DNA of 32,000 nucleotides from Candidatus Hadarchaeota archaeon (GCA_964514965.1 CAZETV010000001.1:300001-332000); one strand, 5' to 3'. Shown: positions 2-22,636, counted from the stretch's first letter. Notes: a model not told the origin generated them from the sequence alone. Numbers and translations are program-made.

Positions 2-358
2 GGAAAGGGAAAGTGGGAGGTTTACATTAGTGGCGGGACGAAACCGACAGGCATTGATATGATCGAGTGGGCAAAAAAAGTCGAGTCACTTGGCGCAGGC
101 GAAATCCTTTACACGGGAATCAACACCGATGGCACGCGAGAGGGCTACGACCTTGATGGAACACGAGCGGTAGTCGAAGCTGTCAGCATACCGGTTATCG
201 CTTCTGGCGGTGCGGGCAAACTTGAGGATATCTACAATGTATTAACCACCGCTCAAGCAGATGCCGCATTAGCCGCAAGCATCTTTCACTTCGGCGTCTA
301 CACAGTCGAACAAGTCAAACGCTACCTGCGAGACCGTGGAGTAGCGGTAAGGATATAA
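2..358 (+). CDS. hisF: Imidazole glycerol phosphate synthase cyclase subunit HisF, C-terminal part (5' end lies outside the window)
   Basis: The frame is open from base 2 ([51 protein letters not shown]...[10 protein letters not shown]), which is a typical HisF C-terminal half. It sits directly upstream of hisD/E/I. Confidence 0.9.
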
Positions 359-16897: not shown

Positions 16898-17106
16898 GAT
16901 ATCACCTCAAGTATCGCTTGAAATTGTTACTGAATAGTTTTTAAATTTAATCGTTGAGTATTTTTTTATTTTTTGATTCGAGGCGAATTTTCCCTCTTAT
17001 AAACAACCCCCACCCAAAACCTCGGCGGGAGAACTGCGCAGAAACAAAAAAGAGAAAAGATAACATACCAGTCCGACGGTCACTTGCGCGGCTAAAAGCC
17101 GAAAAT

Positions 17107-17131
17107 TCGGGTTCGACTCTCGGCACACCCA
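17107..17131 (+). other. tRNA 3'-end-like fragment (T-arm plus acceptor 3' strand); possible att-site remnant
   Basis: TCGGG-TTCGACT-CTCGG forms a 5-bp stem (two G-U pairs) with a canonical 7-nt T-loop (UUCGACU, flanked by a G53-C61 pair). It is followed by 7 nt (CACACCC) and an A. No complementary 5' acceptor strand (GGGTGTG) or 7-nt anticodon loop lies upstream, so it is not an intact tRNA. Confidence 0.3.
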
Positions 17132-17152
17132 AGAAAAAGTGAGGTGAAAAAG

Positions 17153-17902
17153 ATGAACGTTAGGGAGTTTGGCGCCGTATGCGACGTGAGTACGCTGGTC
17201 GACCGCACGAGTTTTGAGCGGGCGCAGCAGTTGCTGGACGGTGGCAATCTTTATCTGTCGTCTGCGACTTACAGCTGGCTAGCGCGCGACAAGCTAATTG
17301 CCGTCCGAGGCAACGCGCTTGGCTACAGCTTGGTGAGCCAGTTTGTGCGCGACCGAAAGCTGCTCGTCGTTTACCTGCCGGAACTGCTCGATGAGATATC
17401 ACGCCGCCTGCTTTTTGAGGTGCAGCGAGAAGTACCGCTCACCGACCTGCGAGCTCTGATGCTTGCGGCGCACCTTCGGTTGCCCCTGTTGACGTTCGAT
17501 GAAGGAGTCGTCGAGCGCCTTCGGGAATACGTAGGGGGGCGAGCACTTTGGCAGCTGGATGCGCATTCCGACTGGCTAGCACTCCGTGAGGCGCTGGAGC
17601 TCTACCGCGAGCTGGCGGGCGACGTGGGTAACTATCTTTACAAAAATCTGAACGACGGGCACTCGTTCGAGAATTTGGTCGATGAACTCCGGAGCTGGCG
17701 CGGCGATAGCCTGCGGACGGCGACAACAGCGGTGCGGAAGCTGAGCCAAGCGCGAACGAATCCGGGGGAGTTGAATTTCAGGTACATTACATGGGACTTG
17801 ACACCAATCCTGCGCGAGTACCTCAAGCAACATGTATTGCAGCCTGAGGTTGTACGTGAACTCTGCGAGCGGGCCCTGCTGCTAGTCGCGAATCCAAAAT
17901 AG
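17153..17902 (+). CDS. Hypothetical protein with PIN-like N-terminal domain and helical C-terminal extension
   Basis: ATG 17153 is preceded by GAGGTGA. The N-terminus has AVCDVSTLVD (PIN strand 1 Asp), and ...TDLRALMLAAHLRLPLLTFDEGV resembles the D.liaA.A....LlT.D..f end of VapC-type PIN domains. The usual second acidic residue is not obvious. GC is clearly above the neighbours. Confidence 0.45.
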   Translation: MNVREFGAVCDVSTLVDRTSFERAQQLLDGGNLYLSSATYSWLARDKLIAVRGNALGYSLVSQFVRDRKLLVVYLPELLDEISRRLLFEVQREVPLTDLRALMLAAHLRLPLLTFDEGVVERLREYVGGRALWQLDAHSDWLALREALELYRELAGDVGNYLYKNLNDGHSFENLVDELRSWRGDSLRTATTAVRKLSQARTNPGELNFRYITWDLTPILREYLKQHVLQPEVVRELCERALLLVANPK

Positions 17903-18120
17903 CAGACATGATGATAAAGCGCAAAACAGAAAATATACGTATTGACGTTTAGACTTTCTTACGACTTTTGAGAAGGCTGTGTCTCCCACTCAAATGCAAC
18001 TAATCACATTCCCCAAAATCTCCTCTAATCTACGATTATTACTATTACTAATATCGAGTTGCTCCCGACATGTTCAAGGCTTGGATATTACTTATAACTT
18101 CAACATGACCAAAAATGGAA

Positions 18121-18129
18121 AATATAAAA
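18121..18129 (+). promoter_or_regulatory. Candidate TATA box for the four-gene operon
   Basis: gaaAATATAAAAcc lies about 60 nt upstream of ATG 18189 within a 274-bp AT-rich spacer. This would leave a leader carrying the AAGGAGGTGA SD. Confidence 0.3.
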
Positions 18130-18188
18130 CCGCACGATACATAAAGACGTAGGACTAGTAAAAGAGAATTAAGGAGGTGATGATAAAC

Positions 18189-18944
18189 ATGAAACTTCTT
18201 CAAATGAGTCAACTCTTTGCCCTACCCCTTCAGTCAGCTATTAAAGCGCAGAATCTTGCTCTACAGGAAACGATTTCCTCCATAGAACAGCTCGGGCTAG
18301 AGAACGGCGCGGCGAAAACTTTTCGCTTTAAAGCCGAAAGAATGATTGAGGAGAGAAAGGTTGATCCAAAAACGGGAATCCCTGAAACACAAATCAAGAG
18401 TCAACCTTTCGAAGTGAGTATTCCCCTACTTGCGATGGTTGCGCCTCCAAGTATGAACATACGCGAGATGAACGTTGAATTTGGAGTGGAGGTAGTGGAA
18501 CCAAAAACTGAACCTATTAAATCAGGTACTATCACGCCAGCGGTACTCGGTTCTTCGCTTTCTCCCTCGTTGTGTCTTTTTACGTCCCTTGGCCAATCGA
18601 ATCCGACTACAATGAAGGTTAACATGAAAATAGTTAGAGAAATTCCGGAAGGGATGGCACGGGTGGGGGATGTACTCACCGACCTTTTGAGTGGACGGCC
18701 TCCAGTGACCGATGAAAAACCAACACCCGAAATAAATCTTGATGTTGAGAAGATAGCGGGCATAGGCGCGGAAAGAGCGGCCCTTCTGAGAGGTAAGGGA
18801 ATATTTACTGTTAAGGGACTAGTCCAAGCTACAAAAACATTTGAGGGAACAAAAGATCTTGCTACGGCCATCGGCGTTTCTTCAAAGCAAATGAGAGAGT
18901 GGAGAGAGAAGGGAAAACTATTAGAAGGGGGAGAAAAATCTTAG
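18189..18944 (+). CDS. Uncharacterized protein P1: paralog-family core plus C-terminal helix-hairpin-helix (DUF4332-like) module
   Basis: A perfect SD (AAGGAGGTGA, 18171-18180) lies 8 nt before ATG 18189 (alternative starts 18177/18180). It shares with P2 the motifs ALPLQ, AIKAQ.LA.Q, S/T-(I/V)PLLAMV..P...I..M.(V/I)(E/D)F and IPEG(M/L).R(V/I).D(V/I)L. The C-terminus EKIAGIGAERAALLRGKGIFTVKGL...AIGVSSKQMREW is HhH-like. Confidence 0.75.
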   Translation: MKLLQMSQLFALPLQSAIKAQNLALQETISSIEQLGLENGAAKTFRFKAERMIEERKVDPKTGIPETQIKSQPFEVSIPLLAMVAPPSMNIREMNVEFGVEVVEPKTEPIKSGTITPAVLGSSLSPSLCLFTSLGQSNPTTMKVNMKIVREIPEGMARVGDVLTDLLSGRPPVTDEKPTPEINLDVEKIAGIGAERAALLRGKGIFTVKGLVQATKTFEGTKDLATAIGVSSKQMREWREKGKLLEGGEKS

Positions 18945-18962
18945 GGCAGGAGGTGAAATAAA

Positions 18963-19655
18963 ATGGCAAACATACCTGCAGAGTTGAGAGCTCTTCCATT
19001 ACAACACATTATTGGATCGCCACTCGTAGCAGCTATAAAAGCACAGGCCTTGGCGGCCCAGACAACTGTGAACTTTATCAAAGAGGTGGGTCTTAAACCA
19101 AGAGCTTTAGAAGCTACTGAGAGCGAAGACAATCTGGATGAAGTAACTGGAGAAAGCGGCAAACCTGGTTATGAAGCCCGATATGTAGATTTCAAGTTCG
19201 ACAGGATAATAGAAGCAGAAGAGGTCACACCCCCAGCTGCTGACGCACCAGCTGGAACACCGCCGACTAAGACGACGAAGTATAGTGTTGTACCTTCCAA
19301 GCTTACAGTGCCACTTCTTGCAATGGTACCGATCCCATATATTCGAATCAATGATATGACTATTGACTTTGAATTCCAGATCAAGGATGTAGAGACAAAG
19401 GAATCCACTACTGAAAAGAAAGTATCTATGAATGCAAAGGCGGGAGGTTGGTTCTGGAAAGTTAACGTCAAGGGTTCCTATAGTAATAGAACTGTTAACA
19501 AGCGCCAGACGGACCGAAGAACAACTCTGAAAATCACAGTTAACGCAGTACAGGACCAGATACCGGAGGGTCTTGGAAGGATTCTAGATATACTCAATGA
19601 GGCGATGAAGGTTGTCCCGTTGACTGCGCCACAGGAAATAGCCGCACCGACCTAA
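18963..19655 (+). CDS. Uncharacterized protein P2: paralog of P1 with acidic and Pro/Ala/Thr-rich linker
   Basis: SD GGAGGTGA (18949-18956) lies 6 nt before the ATG. Motifs: ALPLQHIIGSPLVAAIKAQALAAQTTVNFIKEVGL, TVPLLAMVPIPYIRINDMTIDFEFQIK, and IPEGLGRILDILNEA. The low-complexity linker reads TPPAADAPAGTPPTKTTK. Confidence 0.75.
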   Translation: MANIPAELRALPLQHIIGSPLVAAIKAQALAAQTTVNFIKEVGLKPRALEATESEDNLDEVTGESGKPGYEARYVDFKFDRIIEAEEVTPPAADAPAGTPPTKTTKYSVVPSKLTVPLLAMVPIPYIRINDMTIDFEFQIKDVETKESTTEKKVSMNAKAGGWFWKVNVKGSYSNRTVNKRQTDRRTTLKITVNAVQDQIPEGLGRILDILNEAMKVVPLTAPQEIAAPT

Positions 19656-19679
19656 TTGCATCCAGTTTAAAAAAAGATG

Positions 19680-19710
19680 GGGGGCGAAAGTAATACCCAC
19701 TTTCCCTCCC
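19680..19710 (+). other. Intercistronic stem-loop between P2 and P3
   Basis: GGGGG-c-GAAAGT / loop AATACCC / ACTTTC-c-CTCCC gives 11 pairs (one G-U) with one C-C mismatch, followed by TTT. Read directly from the sequence. Confidence 0.4.
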
Positions 19711-19741
19711 TTTGCCATAATCTAGAAAGGAGAGATTGAAT

Positions 19742-20098
19742 ATGCCGAATAATAAAGAAGGAATAAGTTTAAGCGCAGTAGTTGGAGGCATCGTGCAAGC
19801 CTTAAGGGAAGCGAAGCACTTAGGAGATATAGAAAGTGCAAAATTATTTGAAACCTATAAAAAAGAAAAGGCCCTTTACCCATTCAGTGTTCCTGCTTTT
19901 ACAATTTCTGATACAGATATAGAATTGCGGTTTTCAATTATGCAGCCTTCTGAGGAGGAGAAAAGAAAAGGGCAGATACAAGACCTCAAGGTGAATGTTT
20001 CCTCAGAGTCTCTTAAAAAACTTGAAGCACACCAAGTCAGTGCAATGAAACTCAAGATTGCCCCTGTGAGTATGAGAGTCTTCGAGGAAAAAAAATAA
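19742..20098 (+). CDS. Uncharacterized protein P3: short divergent paralog of P1/P2
   Basis: SD GGAGAG lies 7 nt before ATG 19742 (ORF-track TTG at 19736). ISLSAVVGGIVQALREAK parallels LPLQHIIGSPLVAAIKAQ. FSVPAFTISDTDIELRFSI parallels TVPLLAMV...MTIDFEFQI. It lacks the IPEG tail. Confidence 0.65.
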   Translation: MPNNKEGISLSAVVGGIVQALREAKHLGDIESAKLFETYKKEKALYPFSVPAFTISDTDIELRFSIMQPSEEEKRKGQIQDLKVNVSSESLKKLEAHQVSAMKLKIAPVSMRVFEEKK

Positions 20099-20120
20099 AA
20101 TTCTTTGTATAAGGAGGGAA

Positions 20121-21074
20121 TTGGATATAATTTCAAGGAGCGATGTCATCAGAAACGCTGAACAATATAGAAATATTCAACCTTGGACCCCGACAAATAG
20201 TACACATGGAAATTTCCACAGCGCTTTTGTACATGGCGTAGACGACCCGGTGAGTCAAGAATGTAAGATACGGCAATACGATGTCTTTCCTTACGTGTAC
20301 GGTAGAACCTCTATTCTTACCGTAAATCAATTTTTAAACGCTGTACAACATGGAACCTGCCCCGGTGGCTGGGACACACAAACGGGATGGGGCACGGGAC
20401 ATTTTGGAAATATTCGAAGAAATCTTGCAGGAATAGATTGTTCCGAGTATGTAATGAAATCTTGGGGATTTGCGAGTAAGGTAATAAATGGAACTTGGTA
20501 CGGCACGACCAATTTACCACAATTATGTTTGCAAATAAGAAGAGACGAGTTAGGCACCGGAGATATATTGCTGAGAAGGGGGCACGTTAGGATTTTTGAT
20601 CGTTGGGTTGGTCCCGGTAGAAACAATGTTTGGATATACGAAGCCGCTGGGGCGAGAGACGAAACGCAAGCCCAACGTAACGCCTTACAGTGCCCATTCA
20701 ATCCCGGTGATGACCAAGGCTGTGTAGGCAGATGGATGAGACCATGGGATGCTGGATATACGCCGTATTCACCTTTTCCCCAATTTACAGACCCAACCCC
20801 TAGTATTTTTCAAGGGACCAACCCGCCAATATCTGTAAAGATCGCGGGAAGCGGAAATATAGGTGGAATGTCTATGTCTGTTGATGATAATTCAGTAAGT
20901 TTCTCGCCCAGTTCCGTTTACGATAGAAATCGTCGCAGAGCTTGTGTCCAAATCAACTGGATACCCAATCAAAGTTTATCATTCGGAACGCACACCGTAA
21001 AAGTTGGTGCAACAAACAGAATCTTAGAAAAAAATTTTTTTGCTGGATATACTTGGAATTTCGAGATTATATGA
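20121..21074 (+). CDS. NlpC/P60-like papain-fold cysteine hydrolase with beta-rich C-terminal domain
   Basis: AGIDCSEYV (Cys107, codon 20439-20441) followed by GDILLRRGHVRIF (His155, codon 20583-20585) and WIYEAAG (Glu174). The order and spacing match the NlpC/P60 Cys-His-polar triad. No N-terminal hydrophobic signal is present. TTG start lies just after AAGGAGGG. Confidence 0.65.
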   Translation: MDIISRSDVIRNAEQYRNIQPWTPTNSTHGNFHSAFVHGVDDPVSQECKIRQYDVFPYVYGRTSILTVNQFLNAVQHGTCPGGWDTQTGWGTGHFGNIRRNLAGIDCSEYVMKSWGFASKVINGTWYGTTNLPQLCLQIRRDELGTGDILLRRGHVRIFDRWVGPGRNNVWIYEAAGARDETQAQRNALQCPFNPGDDQGCVGRWMRPWDAGYTPYSPFPQFTDPTPSIFQGTNPPISVKIAGSGNIGGMSMSVDDNSVSFSPSSVYDRNRRRACVQINWIPNQSLSFGTHTVKVGATNRILEKNFFAGYTWNFEII

Positions 21075-21118
21075 TGTTTTCCTTCTACCACATGCATTGA
21101 AGTAATAGCCTCAGCAAC

Positions 21119-22636
21119 CTACATGAACGCCTTCGCATCCTCGCGTTTGTGTAAATTACGCCGTTCGAACTCGCGTGCGGCTTCACCCAAACCAGTCCCA
21201 TGCGCCAACTCCCGCGAACTCCTCCGTCTAACTCTCACAAAGATAGGGTGATTCACGGCCTCGCCCACGACCAATGCCTCGCCCACAGGCAGCGAGGAGA
21301 TCATGTCTGCAACCTCGCTCGTTATCGCTTCCGAAGATTGTTTGATGTGCTCGAGGTCGTAGGGATTTGTGACGCGCAGGATGATGTTTGTGTTTGCCTG
21401 TGAAAGCACGGTTGTCGAGAGCCTCACTGGGCGTTGGGAAATGAGTATAAGCGAAGCGTAAAACTTTCGGCCCTCGCGAGCAAGTGTTTCAATTATCGGC
21501 CTCGAAATCGCCGTTTTCTTGGACTCGCCAGATGGGCAAAACTGATGAGCTTCCTCTAAGCAGAGCACAAACGGGGGCACGCAACCTCTTTTGCGGGCGT
21601 TAAATAACCTCCGCGTAGCATACGCCACGAAAATCTGTTTCTTCCTCAAGCTGACTACGTCGCTGAGGTCAATCACCACCACCTTTCCCGGCTCGACGAT
21701 ATTCTCCAATCTCGGACAATCGGCTAGGTCGAAGATGCCGAGTGAACGGAGGTCGAACAGCCACCCGAGCAAAGCCTGCTGAAGCTGTCTATGGATATCC
21801 CCGTCCCCATCAACCCGCGAGATGACCTCATCCAACCCAAACGGACCCTTGCCCGCACGCATCTCGGCTCGCAACTCGCCAAGCACCCGCTGAAGCTCGC
21901 GCGCTTGCATCCCGGAAATGTCGGGCATAAACTCCTTGAACTGATACGAGCTCAGGTTCGGCACGCCTATCTTGAGTTCTCTGCCTTTGACGACATTCAC
22001 GCGGTCGGGAAAACTTTCGACCAACCCAGTATACTCACCGTGAACATCAATCACGACGACAGCAGGCCGCCCCCGCTCGGGCAGACGACCTAGCAGCTCC
22101 TCAATTATCACCTGAGTGCTTACGCTCTTGCCGGCCCCACTCATTGCGAGCACCGCTACATGTTTACGCAACAGCCTCGTAAGGTCGAGCTTCACAGTTA
22201 GCTCGTGGTGCTTGAGTTTGCCCAGCCCTACCCCGTCGTCCGGATTTAATCCGAGAAATCGCGTTAGCACATCTAATCTAACTTCTTGCACTTTTTGCCC
22301 AGGTGACGGCGGGAAAGTAGTCCGCTCAAGCCCATACTCAGATTGGACCCCGAGCGCCTGAGCTTCGGCTATGAGGTACTCCCAGCGATCTATAGGAAAG
22401 ACTGTCGCCAGTGGTCTGCCGCCCCGCTCGTACTCTTTGACCGACTCGGCCCGCATGAAATACCGATTGGTTTTCATCAAGTTCGTGACGAAGGCTATCA
22501 CCCGCCCTTCCTCGGTCTCGACTTCTACGAATTGTCCTTTTCGAACCGGCATCTTACTTTGGGCCTCGGTGACTACGAAGGAAAATTTGCTTGGTGAGGG
22601 ACCATCCCCTGTAGCGACAATTGTTCCCAATTCCAT
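21119..22636 (-). CDS. herA: HerA-type hexameric DNA translocase/helicase (FtsK-HerA superfamily)
   Basis: 505 aa. The N-terminus is HAS-barrel-like (FSFVV...KGQFVEVE...GRVIAFV). Walker A LAMSGAGKS and Walker B-like VVVIDVHGEY are present. It lies 9 bp downstream of nurA. Confidence 0.85.
   Translation of the reverse strand: MELGTIVATGDGPSPSKFSFVVTEAQSKMPVRKGQFVEVETEEGRVIAFVTNLMKTNRYFMRAESVKEYERGGRPLATVFPIDRWEYLIAEAQALGVQSEYGLERTTFPPSPGQKVQEVRLDVLTRFLGLNPDDGVGLGKLKHHELTVKLDLTRLLRKHVAVLAMSGAGKSVSTQVIIEELLGRLPERGRPAVVVIDVHGEYTGLVESFPDRVNVVKGRELKIGVPNLSSYQFKEFMPDISGMQARELQRVLGELRAEMRAGKGPFGLDEVISRVDGDGDIHRQLQQALLGWLFDLRSLGIFDLADCPRLENIVEPGKVVVIDLSDVVSLRKKQIFVAYATRRLFNARKRGCVPPFVLCLEEAHQFCPSGESKKTAISRPIIETLAREGRKFYASLILISQRPVRLSTTVLSQANTNIILRVTNPYDLEHIKQSSEAITSEVADMISSLPVGEALVVGEAVNHPIFVRVRRRSSRELAHGTGLGEAAREFERRNLHKREDAKAFM

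Follow-up and report, generated by a model that had tools for sequence, protein, structure and literature searches.

A horizontally transferred four-gene cassette in an archaeal genome that appears to pair three DUF2589-superfamily proteins with a divergent NlpC/P60-like hydrolase

Introduction

What would three small proteins of no recognised function be doing beside a predicted wall hydrolase in an archaeon that has no murein? The question is raised by a 32,000-nt stretch of a Candidatus Hadarchaeota archaeon genome (GCA_964514965.1, CAZETV010000001.1:300001-332000; hereafter the window), in which calling of open reading frames (ORFs) gives four tightly spaced genes on the plus strand, P1 to P4, at 18189-21074. 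A preliminary description, made from the sequence alone, had presented them as three paralogous proteins plus an NlpC/P60-like cysteine hydrolase, forming a candidate undescribed system that resembled a multi-subunit assembly or a conflict or defence module. Here we place P1-P3 in one superfamily, describe the cassette as a mobile unit, and tentatively propose that P1-P3 breach membranes and so release P4.

The three-paralog core

P1 and P2 both match PF11655 (DUF2589; Pfam gathering cut-off 23 bits), P1 with 54.4 bits (E 2.4e-14) and P2 with 106.6 bits (E 2e-30), and they are 27% identical to each other (E 2e-10). P3 and P4 have no DUF2589 match in the Pfam search, and BLAST finds no similarity of P3 to P1 or P2. 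Profile-profile comparison of P3 with DUF2589 by hhalign gives a probability of 12.8% with narrow alignments and of 95% with broad alignments built from 80 related loci (E 3.8e-8, 108 columns of the 118 residues). A second broad-alignment run gives 91.8% (E 7.5e-7), while the negative controls, the P4 family and a reversed template, stay at 0.3-0.5%. The elements shared by P3 and DUF2589 are an N-terminal helix, a 'VP...I.D..I.F.F' strand and the final strand. Our local copy of Pfam gave no match for P3, but the identical protein P0131, like every close homolog, carries PF27375 (AF_0414) in precomputed annotations. Given the broad-alignment scores and the clean controls, the first three proteins were rightly called paralogs, P1 and P2 by BLAST and Pfam and P3 by profile-profile comparison, with P3 as a minimal, ancient offshoot. 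By these comparisons P1, P2 and P3 are shown to be three anciently diverged members of a DUF2589/AF_0414 superfamily.

P1 was also said to carry a helix-hairpin-helix (HhH) module at its C-terminus. This holds for the P1 orthologue in locus L004, where DUF4332 scores 34.3 bits (3e-8), above its cut-off, but in the window P1 both HHH_5 (22.9 bits, cut-off 27) and DUF4332 (20.9 bits, cut-off 23.2) fall short. Such a module would point to nucleic-acid binding by P1. Matches of the P1 C-terminus to designed proteins in the PDB were judged spurious.

Nothing characterised matches P1-P3 in Pfam, PDB, PHROG, NCBIfam or PADLOC, so the label of an undescribed system is fair. The three proteins have no PDB, PHROG or real PADLOC match, and their Pfam and NCBIfam matches are limited to DUF2589/AF_0414 and the sub-threshold HhH/DUF4332 region. 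No solved structure related to DUF2589 or AF_0414 could be detected with narrow or broad profiles against the PDB; a match of the P2 profile to YtfE (E 0.02) and matches of the AF_0414 profile to designed proteins were judged spurious. The literature on DUF2589, DUF4332 and AF0414-AF0417 yielded incidental mentions of DUF2589 only (an expression-table entry and a single sentence), one of which concerns the up-regulation of Archaeoglobus fulgidus AF0414-AF0417 on lactate.

We surveyed the family by ORF calling and profile hidden Markov model searches on 82 non-redundant loci. DUF2589 genes nearly always occur as at least two divergent paralogs, a strong 'B-type' that matches the P2 profile and a weaker 'A-type'. 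A core module, the triad, combines two or more DUF2589 paralogs with an AF_0414 protein; it is present in 68 of the 82 loci and spans many phyla. Because the triad occurs together in most family loci, P1-P3 probably act as a hetero-oligomer. A broader genome scan found at least 335 DUF2589-encoding stretches in more than a dozen bacterial phyla, including gut Bacteroidales, and in at least four archaeal lineages.

The P4 family is limited to nine loci, the window included, all within a single subfamily. The other neighbours of the triad are variable and mostly without a recognisable family. In this sample the conserved core is the three-paralog module, and the hydrolase is one of several interchangeable accessories. 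The combination of paralogs and hydrolase is conserved in at least nine loci, and the hydrolase is confined to one subfamily of triad loci.

The hydrolase

As a single sequence, P4 has no match in Pfam (E <=1), NCBIfam, PHROGs, PADLOC or PDB. A profile of its family (18 members) aligns to Escherichia coli Spr/MepS with an E-value of 0.003, over the catalytic Cys and His motifs. Searching 1.84 billion representatives with the P4 profile returned 1370 relatives, and 28 of 90 intermediate relatives match Pfam NLPC_P60 (PF00877; best E 3.9e-6), compared with none of the 90 for other catalytic families. The assignment of P4 to NlpC/P60 rests on this transitive support, from the profile to MepS and from the relatives to PF00877.

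The motifs agree with the assignment. The Cys motif GIDC107SEY has Cys in 17 of the 18 family members and Ser in one, and aligns with the Spr catalytic Cys. The member with Ser, the 290-aa homolog P0130, reads GIDSSGF and may be an inactive or serine-nucleophile variant. The His motif GDILLRRGH155VRIF is invariant in the family and aligns to the Spr His motif. E174, in 'IYEA', is likewise invariant, and its position suggests that it is the third catalytic residue. The Cys-His-Glu hydrolase of the preliminary description is thus upheld: P4 is, on profile and motif evidence, a divergent NlpC/P60 cysteine hydrolase (Cys107/His155/Glu174), with murein hydrolysis as its predicted activity.

P4 and MepS/Spr (PF00877) have in common a 'GIDCSxxV' Cys motif, a 'GDIL...GHVxIF' His motif and a downstream acidic residue. 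Unlike MepS/Spr, P4 falls on no Pfam model, carries an N-terminal extension of ~100 residues and an Ig-like C-terminal domain, has no leader or lipoprotein signal, and is encoded by an archaeon, with its activity predicted from sequence. The AlphaFold2 model of P4 has a predicted local distance difference test (pLDDT) score of 78.6 overall, ~96 in the Ig-like domain and ~55-95 in the catalytic region. Foldseek matches of the whole-chain model are dominated by the Ig-like domain.

P4 appears to have lost an export signal. Cassette-type P4 proteins start directly with 'MITRxDVI'. Among 37 more distant relatives (P0203-P0239), by contrast, 25 begin with a hydrophobic stretch like a signal peptide, and in many of these 'ITRxxVI' comes directly after it. 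Many relatives also carry type IX secretion system (T9SS) sorting, Ig-like or dockerin domains. P4 thus looks like a member of a secreted enzyme lineage that is reduced to the mature protein, with the export signal gone. Leader-like N-termini are rare throughout the system: one was flagged among 68 AF_0414 proteins, and none among 186 DUF2589 proteins, nine members of the P4 family and five associated muramidases.

Signal-less enzymes of this kind are known from archaea. In a 2025 survey, 68% of archaeal peptidoglycan hydrolases had no signal peptide (Strock et al., PLoS Biol 2025, PMC12352652). P4 resembles them as a murein-type enzyme of bacterial origin, without a signal peptide, in a murein-less archaeon, and differs in being embedded in a conserved four-gene cassette. 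The survey was Pfam-based, and its main text names neither NlpC nor DUF2589 (PMC12352652). Since P4 has no Pfam match, it was probably missed, and P4 suggests that Pfam-based surveys overlook some archaeal wall hydrolases.

Transfer, selection and distribution

HerA marks the host as a Hadesarchaeon, as the named members of its 90%-identity cluster all belong to the Hadesarchaea. We compared the window with close relatives, defined as Hadesarchaea whose HerA falls in the same 90%-identity cluster. In three of them (L096, L097, L098) HerA adjoins a homologue of the 252-aa gene that precedes the cassette in the window, and no cassette lies between. A fourth, related Hadesarchaeon contig (L093) has the cassette at the same locus. 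Junction alignments place the indel at ~17950-21091. Its ends carry no flanking direct or inverted repeats, tRNA or Rfam family. GC content at third codon positions (GC3) is 0.35-0.41 in the cassette and 0.45-0.69 in the flanking genes. A link to HerA-NurA was considered and rejected, because both genes are syntenic in the relatives that lack the cassette.

The ratio of nonsynonymous to synonymous substitution rates (dN/dS), calculated between the window and L093, is 0.11 for P1, 0.07 for P2, 0.21 for P3 and 0.24 for P4. Flanking genes give 0.11-0.22 with similar dS. The cassette values are like those of the flanks; the four genes, the murein-type hydrolase among them, are thus being retained by the archaeon. 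The comparisons show the region as a self-contained, horizontally transferred four-gene module that forms a strain-variable island under purifying selection.

The same four-gene order, with nearly the same protein sizes, is found in at least nine non-redundant bacterial and archaeal loci. The carriers are a Nostocaceae cyanobacterium, Calditrichota, Desulfotomaculum, Bacteroidota, Streptomyces, Hydrothermarchaeota and other euryarchaeal metagenome-assembled genomes (MAGs). Among close cassettes, P2 is 57-88% identical to its counterpart in the window, P1 51-64%, P3 52-64% and P4 36-41%, an order of P2 > P1 ≈ P3 > P4. By this measure P2 is the most conserved subunit of the cassette. Near-identical cassettes in an archaeon and in bacteria make a clear case for recent inter-domain transfer of a complete functional unit.

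One possible source of such a mobile unit is a virus, and P1-P4 could be the remnant of a virus or prophage structural or lysis cassette. A leaderless lysin beside small structural-looking proteins is superficially like phage late genes, and the weak, non-significant Foldseek matches include phage tail-knob and collar proteins. The family is nevertheless almost absent from viral sequence. It occurs in 3 of 2.9 million viral contigs, where the triad sits just past a prophage integrase and probably in host flanking DNA, and in 1 of 50,697 phage records. There is no PHROG match, the single BFVD match is itself a homolog, and no capsid, terminase or integrase gene is nearby. We regard a viral origin as hardly credible.

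A second possibility is an abortive-infection or anti-phage module that lyses the infected cell. The cassette is an accessory, strain-variable, horizontally mobile small operon and, should the membrane and wall hypothesis be right, its parts would make sense as a suicide-type effector. Against PADLOC-DB 2.0, however, the four proteins give only noise (E >= 0.05), and 97 family members give two stray weak matches. Neighbours are housekeeping or unrelated genes in the window and in other loci, the cassette has no sensor or NTPase component, and the archaeal host has no murein for P4 to attack. A defence role is in our view very improbable. The earlier likening of the cassette to a conflict or defence module gains no support: these results give no evidence of a defence island or a provirus, and the family is present on only 6 of 72,556 plasmids, all non-mobilizable. 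Direct tests thus disfavour both defence and viral origins. A well-characterised module accounting for all four proteins, which the preliminary description had named as the finding that would undo its reading, did not appear in the Pfam, NCBIfam, PDB, PHROG or PADLOC searches.

Function

The most conserved subunit bears on mechanism. P2 has a helix at either end and, between them, a 'VPLLAMVPIPYIRI' segment and an amphipathic β-hairpin rich in Ser and Thr. In its AlphaFold2 model (pLDDT 69.6) two long β-hairpins lie between a long N-terminal helix and a C-terminal helix; these terminal helices pack around the β-region, and the hairpin tip is modelled at low confidence. The tip reads KVSMNAKA-GG-WFWKVNVKGSY (residues ~153-173). 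We analysed the hairpin region of 93 B-type proteins, taken as the segment bounded by the signature strand and the C-terminal 'PxG' motif. Ser and Thr make up 27% of this region. Its two ~11-residue arms alternate between hydrophobic and polar positions, with a mean of 19.9 out of 22 (z 2.6 vs composition-matched shuffles; 76% have z > 2), and the tips are rich in W, F, G and P (e.g. GGWFWKV, SAFWSPVKL, GWGPFSAKL and GFGGGVIGFLGG). This is the pattern of an amphipathic insertion hairpin of ~2 x 10 residues as found in pore-formers, a feature that is necessary for insertion and not specific to it.

The extended hairpin of the P2 model, with alternating Ser/Thr-rich arms and an aromatic/Gly/Pro tip, is reminiscent of the aerolysin/ETX-MTX2 toxins, and with gasdermins P2 shares being leaderless and cytoplasmic. 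It differs from both pore-forming toxins and gasdermins in having no significant sequence or fold match to them, and its terminal helices and obligatory paralog partners have no counterpart there.

Our tentative proposal, which we hold as possible rather than established, is that the triad forms a holin-independent, membrane-breaching assembly that releases P4. P2 would be the abundant core subunit, and its amphipathic hairpin, with the aromatic/Gly tip, would insert into the cytoplasmic membrane from inside. P1, with its HhH module, and P3 would be nucleating or regulating partners. The resulting lesion would let the leaderless P4 leave the cytoplasm. The cassette would then be a functional analogue, without a holin, of holin-endolysin cassettes or of lysis-dependent bacteriocin release. 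A bacterial host would thereby undergo autolysis or spill its contents, whereas P4 from an archaeal host, which has no murein, would act on neighbouring bacteria.

The comparison with holin-endolysin systems and 'type 10' secretion is close in two respects: a leaderless wall hydrolase lies beside small proteins with no enzymatic signature, and hydrolases of interchangeable folds (NlpC/P60, muramidase, amidase) occupy one position. It fails in others. In such cassettes the holin, a small protein with one or more transmembrane helices, lies beside a leaderless muralytic enzyme, whereas the maximum Kyte-Doolittle value over 19 residues is <=1.46 in P1-P4, in line with the earlier statement that none of the four has a signal peptide or transmembrane segment. 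P1-P3 have no similarity to holin, spanin or phage proteins, and the cassette lies in no phage, prophage or tailocin context. The partner here is a set of three paralogs of 118-251 aa, and most family loci have no hydrolase.

Wall-related genes recur beside the triad in forms unrelated to P4. They comprise Muramidase+PG_binding_1 (5 loci), Amidase_2, LysM with a weak SLT match, OmpA with a zincin motif, and SH3_3; on a plasmid, an annotated peptidoglycan-binding protein lies 2 kb downstream of the triad. Three further candidates were set aside: fourth genes in L004 (218 aa, SleB-like) and L020 (303 aa, NlpC/P60-like), both suggested by motifs, have no Pfam or PDB support, and a CHAP match of the fourth gene in L007 (E 0.16) is weak and was not counted.

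These neighbours bear on a gasdermin-like alternative, in which papain-fold P4 would cleave and activate a pore-forming DUF2589 subunit, e.g. by clipping off a terminal helix. In its favour, the putative pore former is leaderless and adjoins a cysteine peptidase of the papain-like superfamily, and the packing of the P2 terminal helices around the β-region would suit such a step. But P4 occurs in one subfamily only, and elsewhere its place is taken by a muramidase, a glycosidase that cannot process protein, or by nothing recognisable. Relatives of P4 are secreted enzymes with Ig-like, T9SS-sorting or dockerin domains, and no conserved cleavage site was identified. The repeated recruitment of leaderless wall enzymes of several folds suggests that P4 targets murein rather than the triad proteins, and it favours membrane breaching over gasdermin-like activation, which we consider improbable.

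The same hairpin could instead act outside the cell. P1-P4 would then be a released multi-component toxin in which P2-type β-barrels form pores in a target and P4 breaches the target's wall, the components leaving the producer through some export route or through lysis of a subset of cells. The general likeness of the Ser/Thr-rich hairpin and its aromatic tip to aerolysin-type stem loops would fit, as would a host archaeon whose own envelope offers P4 no murein. Bacteria-killing peptidoglycan hydrolases are documented from archaea, mostly without signal peptides (PMC12352652), and horizontal spread, as seen for the cassette, is common among weapon loci. On the other side, the cassette is linked to no secretion system, export signal or immunity gene, there is no significant fold match to pore-forming toxins, and a bacterium carrying the cassette would face its own hydrolase. 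A released toxin is quite unlikely.

Several results weigh against the membrane-breaching proposal. The alternating β-hairpin is equally expected of a sheet with one buried face or of a polymer interface, and the P2 model is only moderately confident. Foldseek searches of P1-P3 against the PDB reach a best E of 0.38 with TM-scores of ~0.1 and give no link to pore-formers, and none of the three has a transmembrane helix. A lattice-forming structural subunit would account at least equally well for the very high conservation of P2 across domains, and an identity of 88% between archaeon and bacteria is surprising for insertion into very different lipids. Murein is a predicted substrate of P4, and NlpC/P60 enzymes also include amidases and acyltransferases. 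A recognisable wall-related gene lies beside the triad in only ~19 of the 82 loci, and about three quarters have no recognisable hydrolase, which means that releasing a hydrolase cannot account for all that the core does. P4-type cassettes, finally, show no conserved immunity gene or regulator.

Some of these points lead to the main rival, that P1-P3 assemble into a structural polymer in the cytoplasm or at the envelope, such as a filament, sheet or shell, with the hydrolase as a local wall remodeller or an unrelated passenger. P2 is conserved across domains as if every surface were constrained by a lattice, the paralog set is obligatory with all members leaderless, and the hydrolase is absent from most loci. 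Conserved termini around a variable centre, together with expansions to 5-6 paralogs in Bacteroidales, resemble filament subunits. The cassette shares with gas-vesicle GvpA/J/M and R-body RebA/B/D sets the presence of several small, homologous, leaderless proteins in one operon, a major subunit very conserved across distant taxa, and a sporadic, horizontally spread distribution. It differs in showing no homology to them in Pfam or NCBIfam and in having no assembly ATPase, and Gvp/Reb sets are not associated with wall hydrolases. Nor is there a match to GvpA, RebB, bactofilin or any cytoskeletal family, and a polymer leaves unexplained both the repeated recruitment of unrelated leaderless wall hydrolases and the loss of the P4 leader. 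We judge a purely structural role to be unlikely, though worth keeping in mind.

An RNA hairpin after the P2 gene counts for the membrane-breaching proposal, as do the LytTR regulators upstream of the family genes in five loci, and also for this rival, since hairpins after the major-subunit gene are typical of operons for abundant structural proteins. Orthologous archaeal and bacterial cassettes have a hairpin at the same position with a different sequence (L001, L004, L007, L010, L093). Six of 11 cassettes have a hairpin more stable than any of 40 shuffles (z -2.7 to -4.5), and a seventh is marginal (z -1.25). The hairpin has no Rfam match. It is consistent with higher expression of the upstream subunits, and may serve as an intra-operon attenuator or stabilise the mRNA, and so set the ratio of subunits. 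A T-run comes after it in L004 and L015.

Returning to membrane breaching, a bolder form of the proposal would make the triad a lipid-agnostic breacher of bacterial and archaeal membranes for leaderless cargo, and the bacteria-derived cassette in archaea an antibacterial weapon. We consider this extension doubtful. Transfer of the complete unit between domains would imply a mechanism independent of envelope type. If the triad is a membrane-breaching or self-assembling machine, it would represent a new, widespread class of prokaryotic cell-envelope system with no characterised member. Two processes would become testable: the exit of leaderless wall hydrolases without holins or secretion systems, and the deployment by archaea of signal-less murein-degrading enzymes, which was left open by the 2025 survey (PMC12352652).

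Locus features and neighbouring genes

Coordinates are collected in Table 1. The reported same-strand arrangement and its intergenic gaps of 18 nt (P1-P2), 86 nt (P2-P3) and 22 nt (P3-P4) were reproduced, as was the convergent orientation to herA.

Table 1. Positions of the cassette genes and associated features, counted from the first nucleotide of the window unless given as residues
Feature	Position	Strand	Description
P1	18189-18944	+	251 aa; 'A-type' DUF2589 paralog, DUF2589 region ~6-164
P1 C-terminal HhH/DUF4332-like module	residues ~185-241; nt 18741-18911	+	Pfam scores below cut-off in the window
P2	18963-19655	+	230 aa; 'B-type' DUF2589 paralog, PF11655 match
P3	19742-20098	+	118 aa; AF_0414 family (PF27375) by precomputed annotation, minimal remote DUF2589 homolog
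P4	20121-21074	+	317 aa; leaderless, predicted NlpC/P60-like cysteine hydrolase
P4 catalytic core (predicted)	residues ~100-210; Cys107 nt 20439-20441; His155 20583-20585; Glu174 20640-20642		
P4 C-terminal Ig-like β-sandwich	residues ~220-317		AlphaFold2 model and Foldseek
Accessory island	17950-21091	+	~3.1-kb indel; boundaries approximate (left 17948-17975, right ~21092)
AT-rich upstream region, presumed promoter	17950-18188	+	within the inserted segment; absent from empty sites
RNA hairpin, G-rich/C-rich	19679-19710	+	24 nt past the P2 stop, inside the 86-nt P2-P3 spacer
HerA	21119-22636	-	convergent with the cassette; NurA next

A GGAGG ribosome-binding site had been described before each gene. 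It lies 11 nt ahead of the P1 ATG, 8 nt ahead of the P2 ATG and just 3 nt ahead of the P4 start, but the Shine-Dalgarno-like motif of P3 is GGAGA. The P4 start is TTG at 20121, the sole canonical in-frame start. The ATG of bacterial P4 orthologues aligns with an ATA at 20127, and ATA is found in three Hadesarchaea variants (20113-20130). These features suggest weak or non-canonical translation initiation of the hydrolase gene.

The AT-rich spacer upstream of P1 (17903-18188) has a GC content of 36%, as expected from the earlier account. Its reported length of 274 nt counts from an alternative GTG at 18177; from the ATG at 18189 it is 286 nt. A sigma-70 promoter scan showed no enrichment over background, its consensus being bacterial and not applicable to an archaeal host. 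A scan of the window for intrinsic terminators was also at background level.

Upstream of the spacer, the 252-aa gene (17144-17902; GC 58%) has no Pfam match and an unusually high GC3 of 0.69. It is kept beside HerA in all Hadesarchaea relatives examined, with or without the cassette. A second indel polymorphism affects the locus between a cyclophilin-like gene and the homologue of the 252-aa gene. Relatives have a gene there for a ~535-aa β-helix (NosD-like) protein (L093 5160-6761, L096 10456-12066), which is absent in the window (16898-17143) and in L098.

Other family loci show recurrent neighbours. Stand-alone LytTR DNA-binding regulators lie immediately upstream of DUF2589 clusters in five Bacteroidota loci (L033, L045, L046, L048, L091); in L094 (Fulvitalea plasmid pFA8) a two-component system is found a short distance upstream instead. 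An 80-114-aa zinc-ribbon protein (CPxC...CPxC) is encoded directly after a 'DUF2589 - AF_0414 - DUF2589' triad in five loci (L033 8333-8575, L034 4831-5175, L053 2863-3195, L080 3399-3698, L081 2542-2871), and in L033 and L034 its gene immediately precedes a wall-hydrolase gene. Directly after AF_0414, 11 loci (including L028, L029, L041, L059 and L078) encode a ~180-aa, probably α-helical protein with no Pfam match, which may replace the second paralog in modules that show one DUF2589 gene.

A cluster of CetZ, tubulin, unknown and CetZ genes directly follows the cassette on the same strand in L004 (9923-14121) and L014 (8016-11000). As it occurs only in these two related euryarchaeal MAGs, CetZ and tubulin were treated as neighbours and rejected as parts of the system. 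Five Lachnospiraceae loci (L043, L058, L068, L072, L077) have the order DUF2589 - AF_0414 - 180 aa - 129 aa, followed by a ~550-580-aa DUF4135 protein; we take DUF4135 to be the N-terminal domain of LanM-type lanthipeptide synthetases. The expansions to 5-6 DUF2589 paralogs (up to 524 aa) are found in gut and rumen Bacteroidales and related MAGs (L047, L049, L050, L055, L057, L060, L063, L064, L069, L071, L073, L075, L076, L086). The one paralog read in sequence, the 450-aa protein of L050, has a long, acidic, Pro/Ser/Thr-rich low-complexity N-terminal segment.

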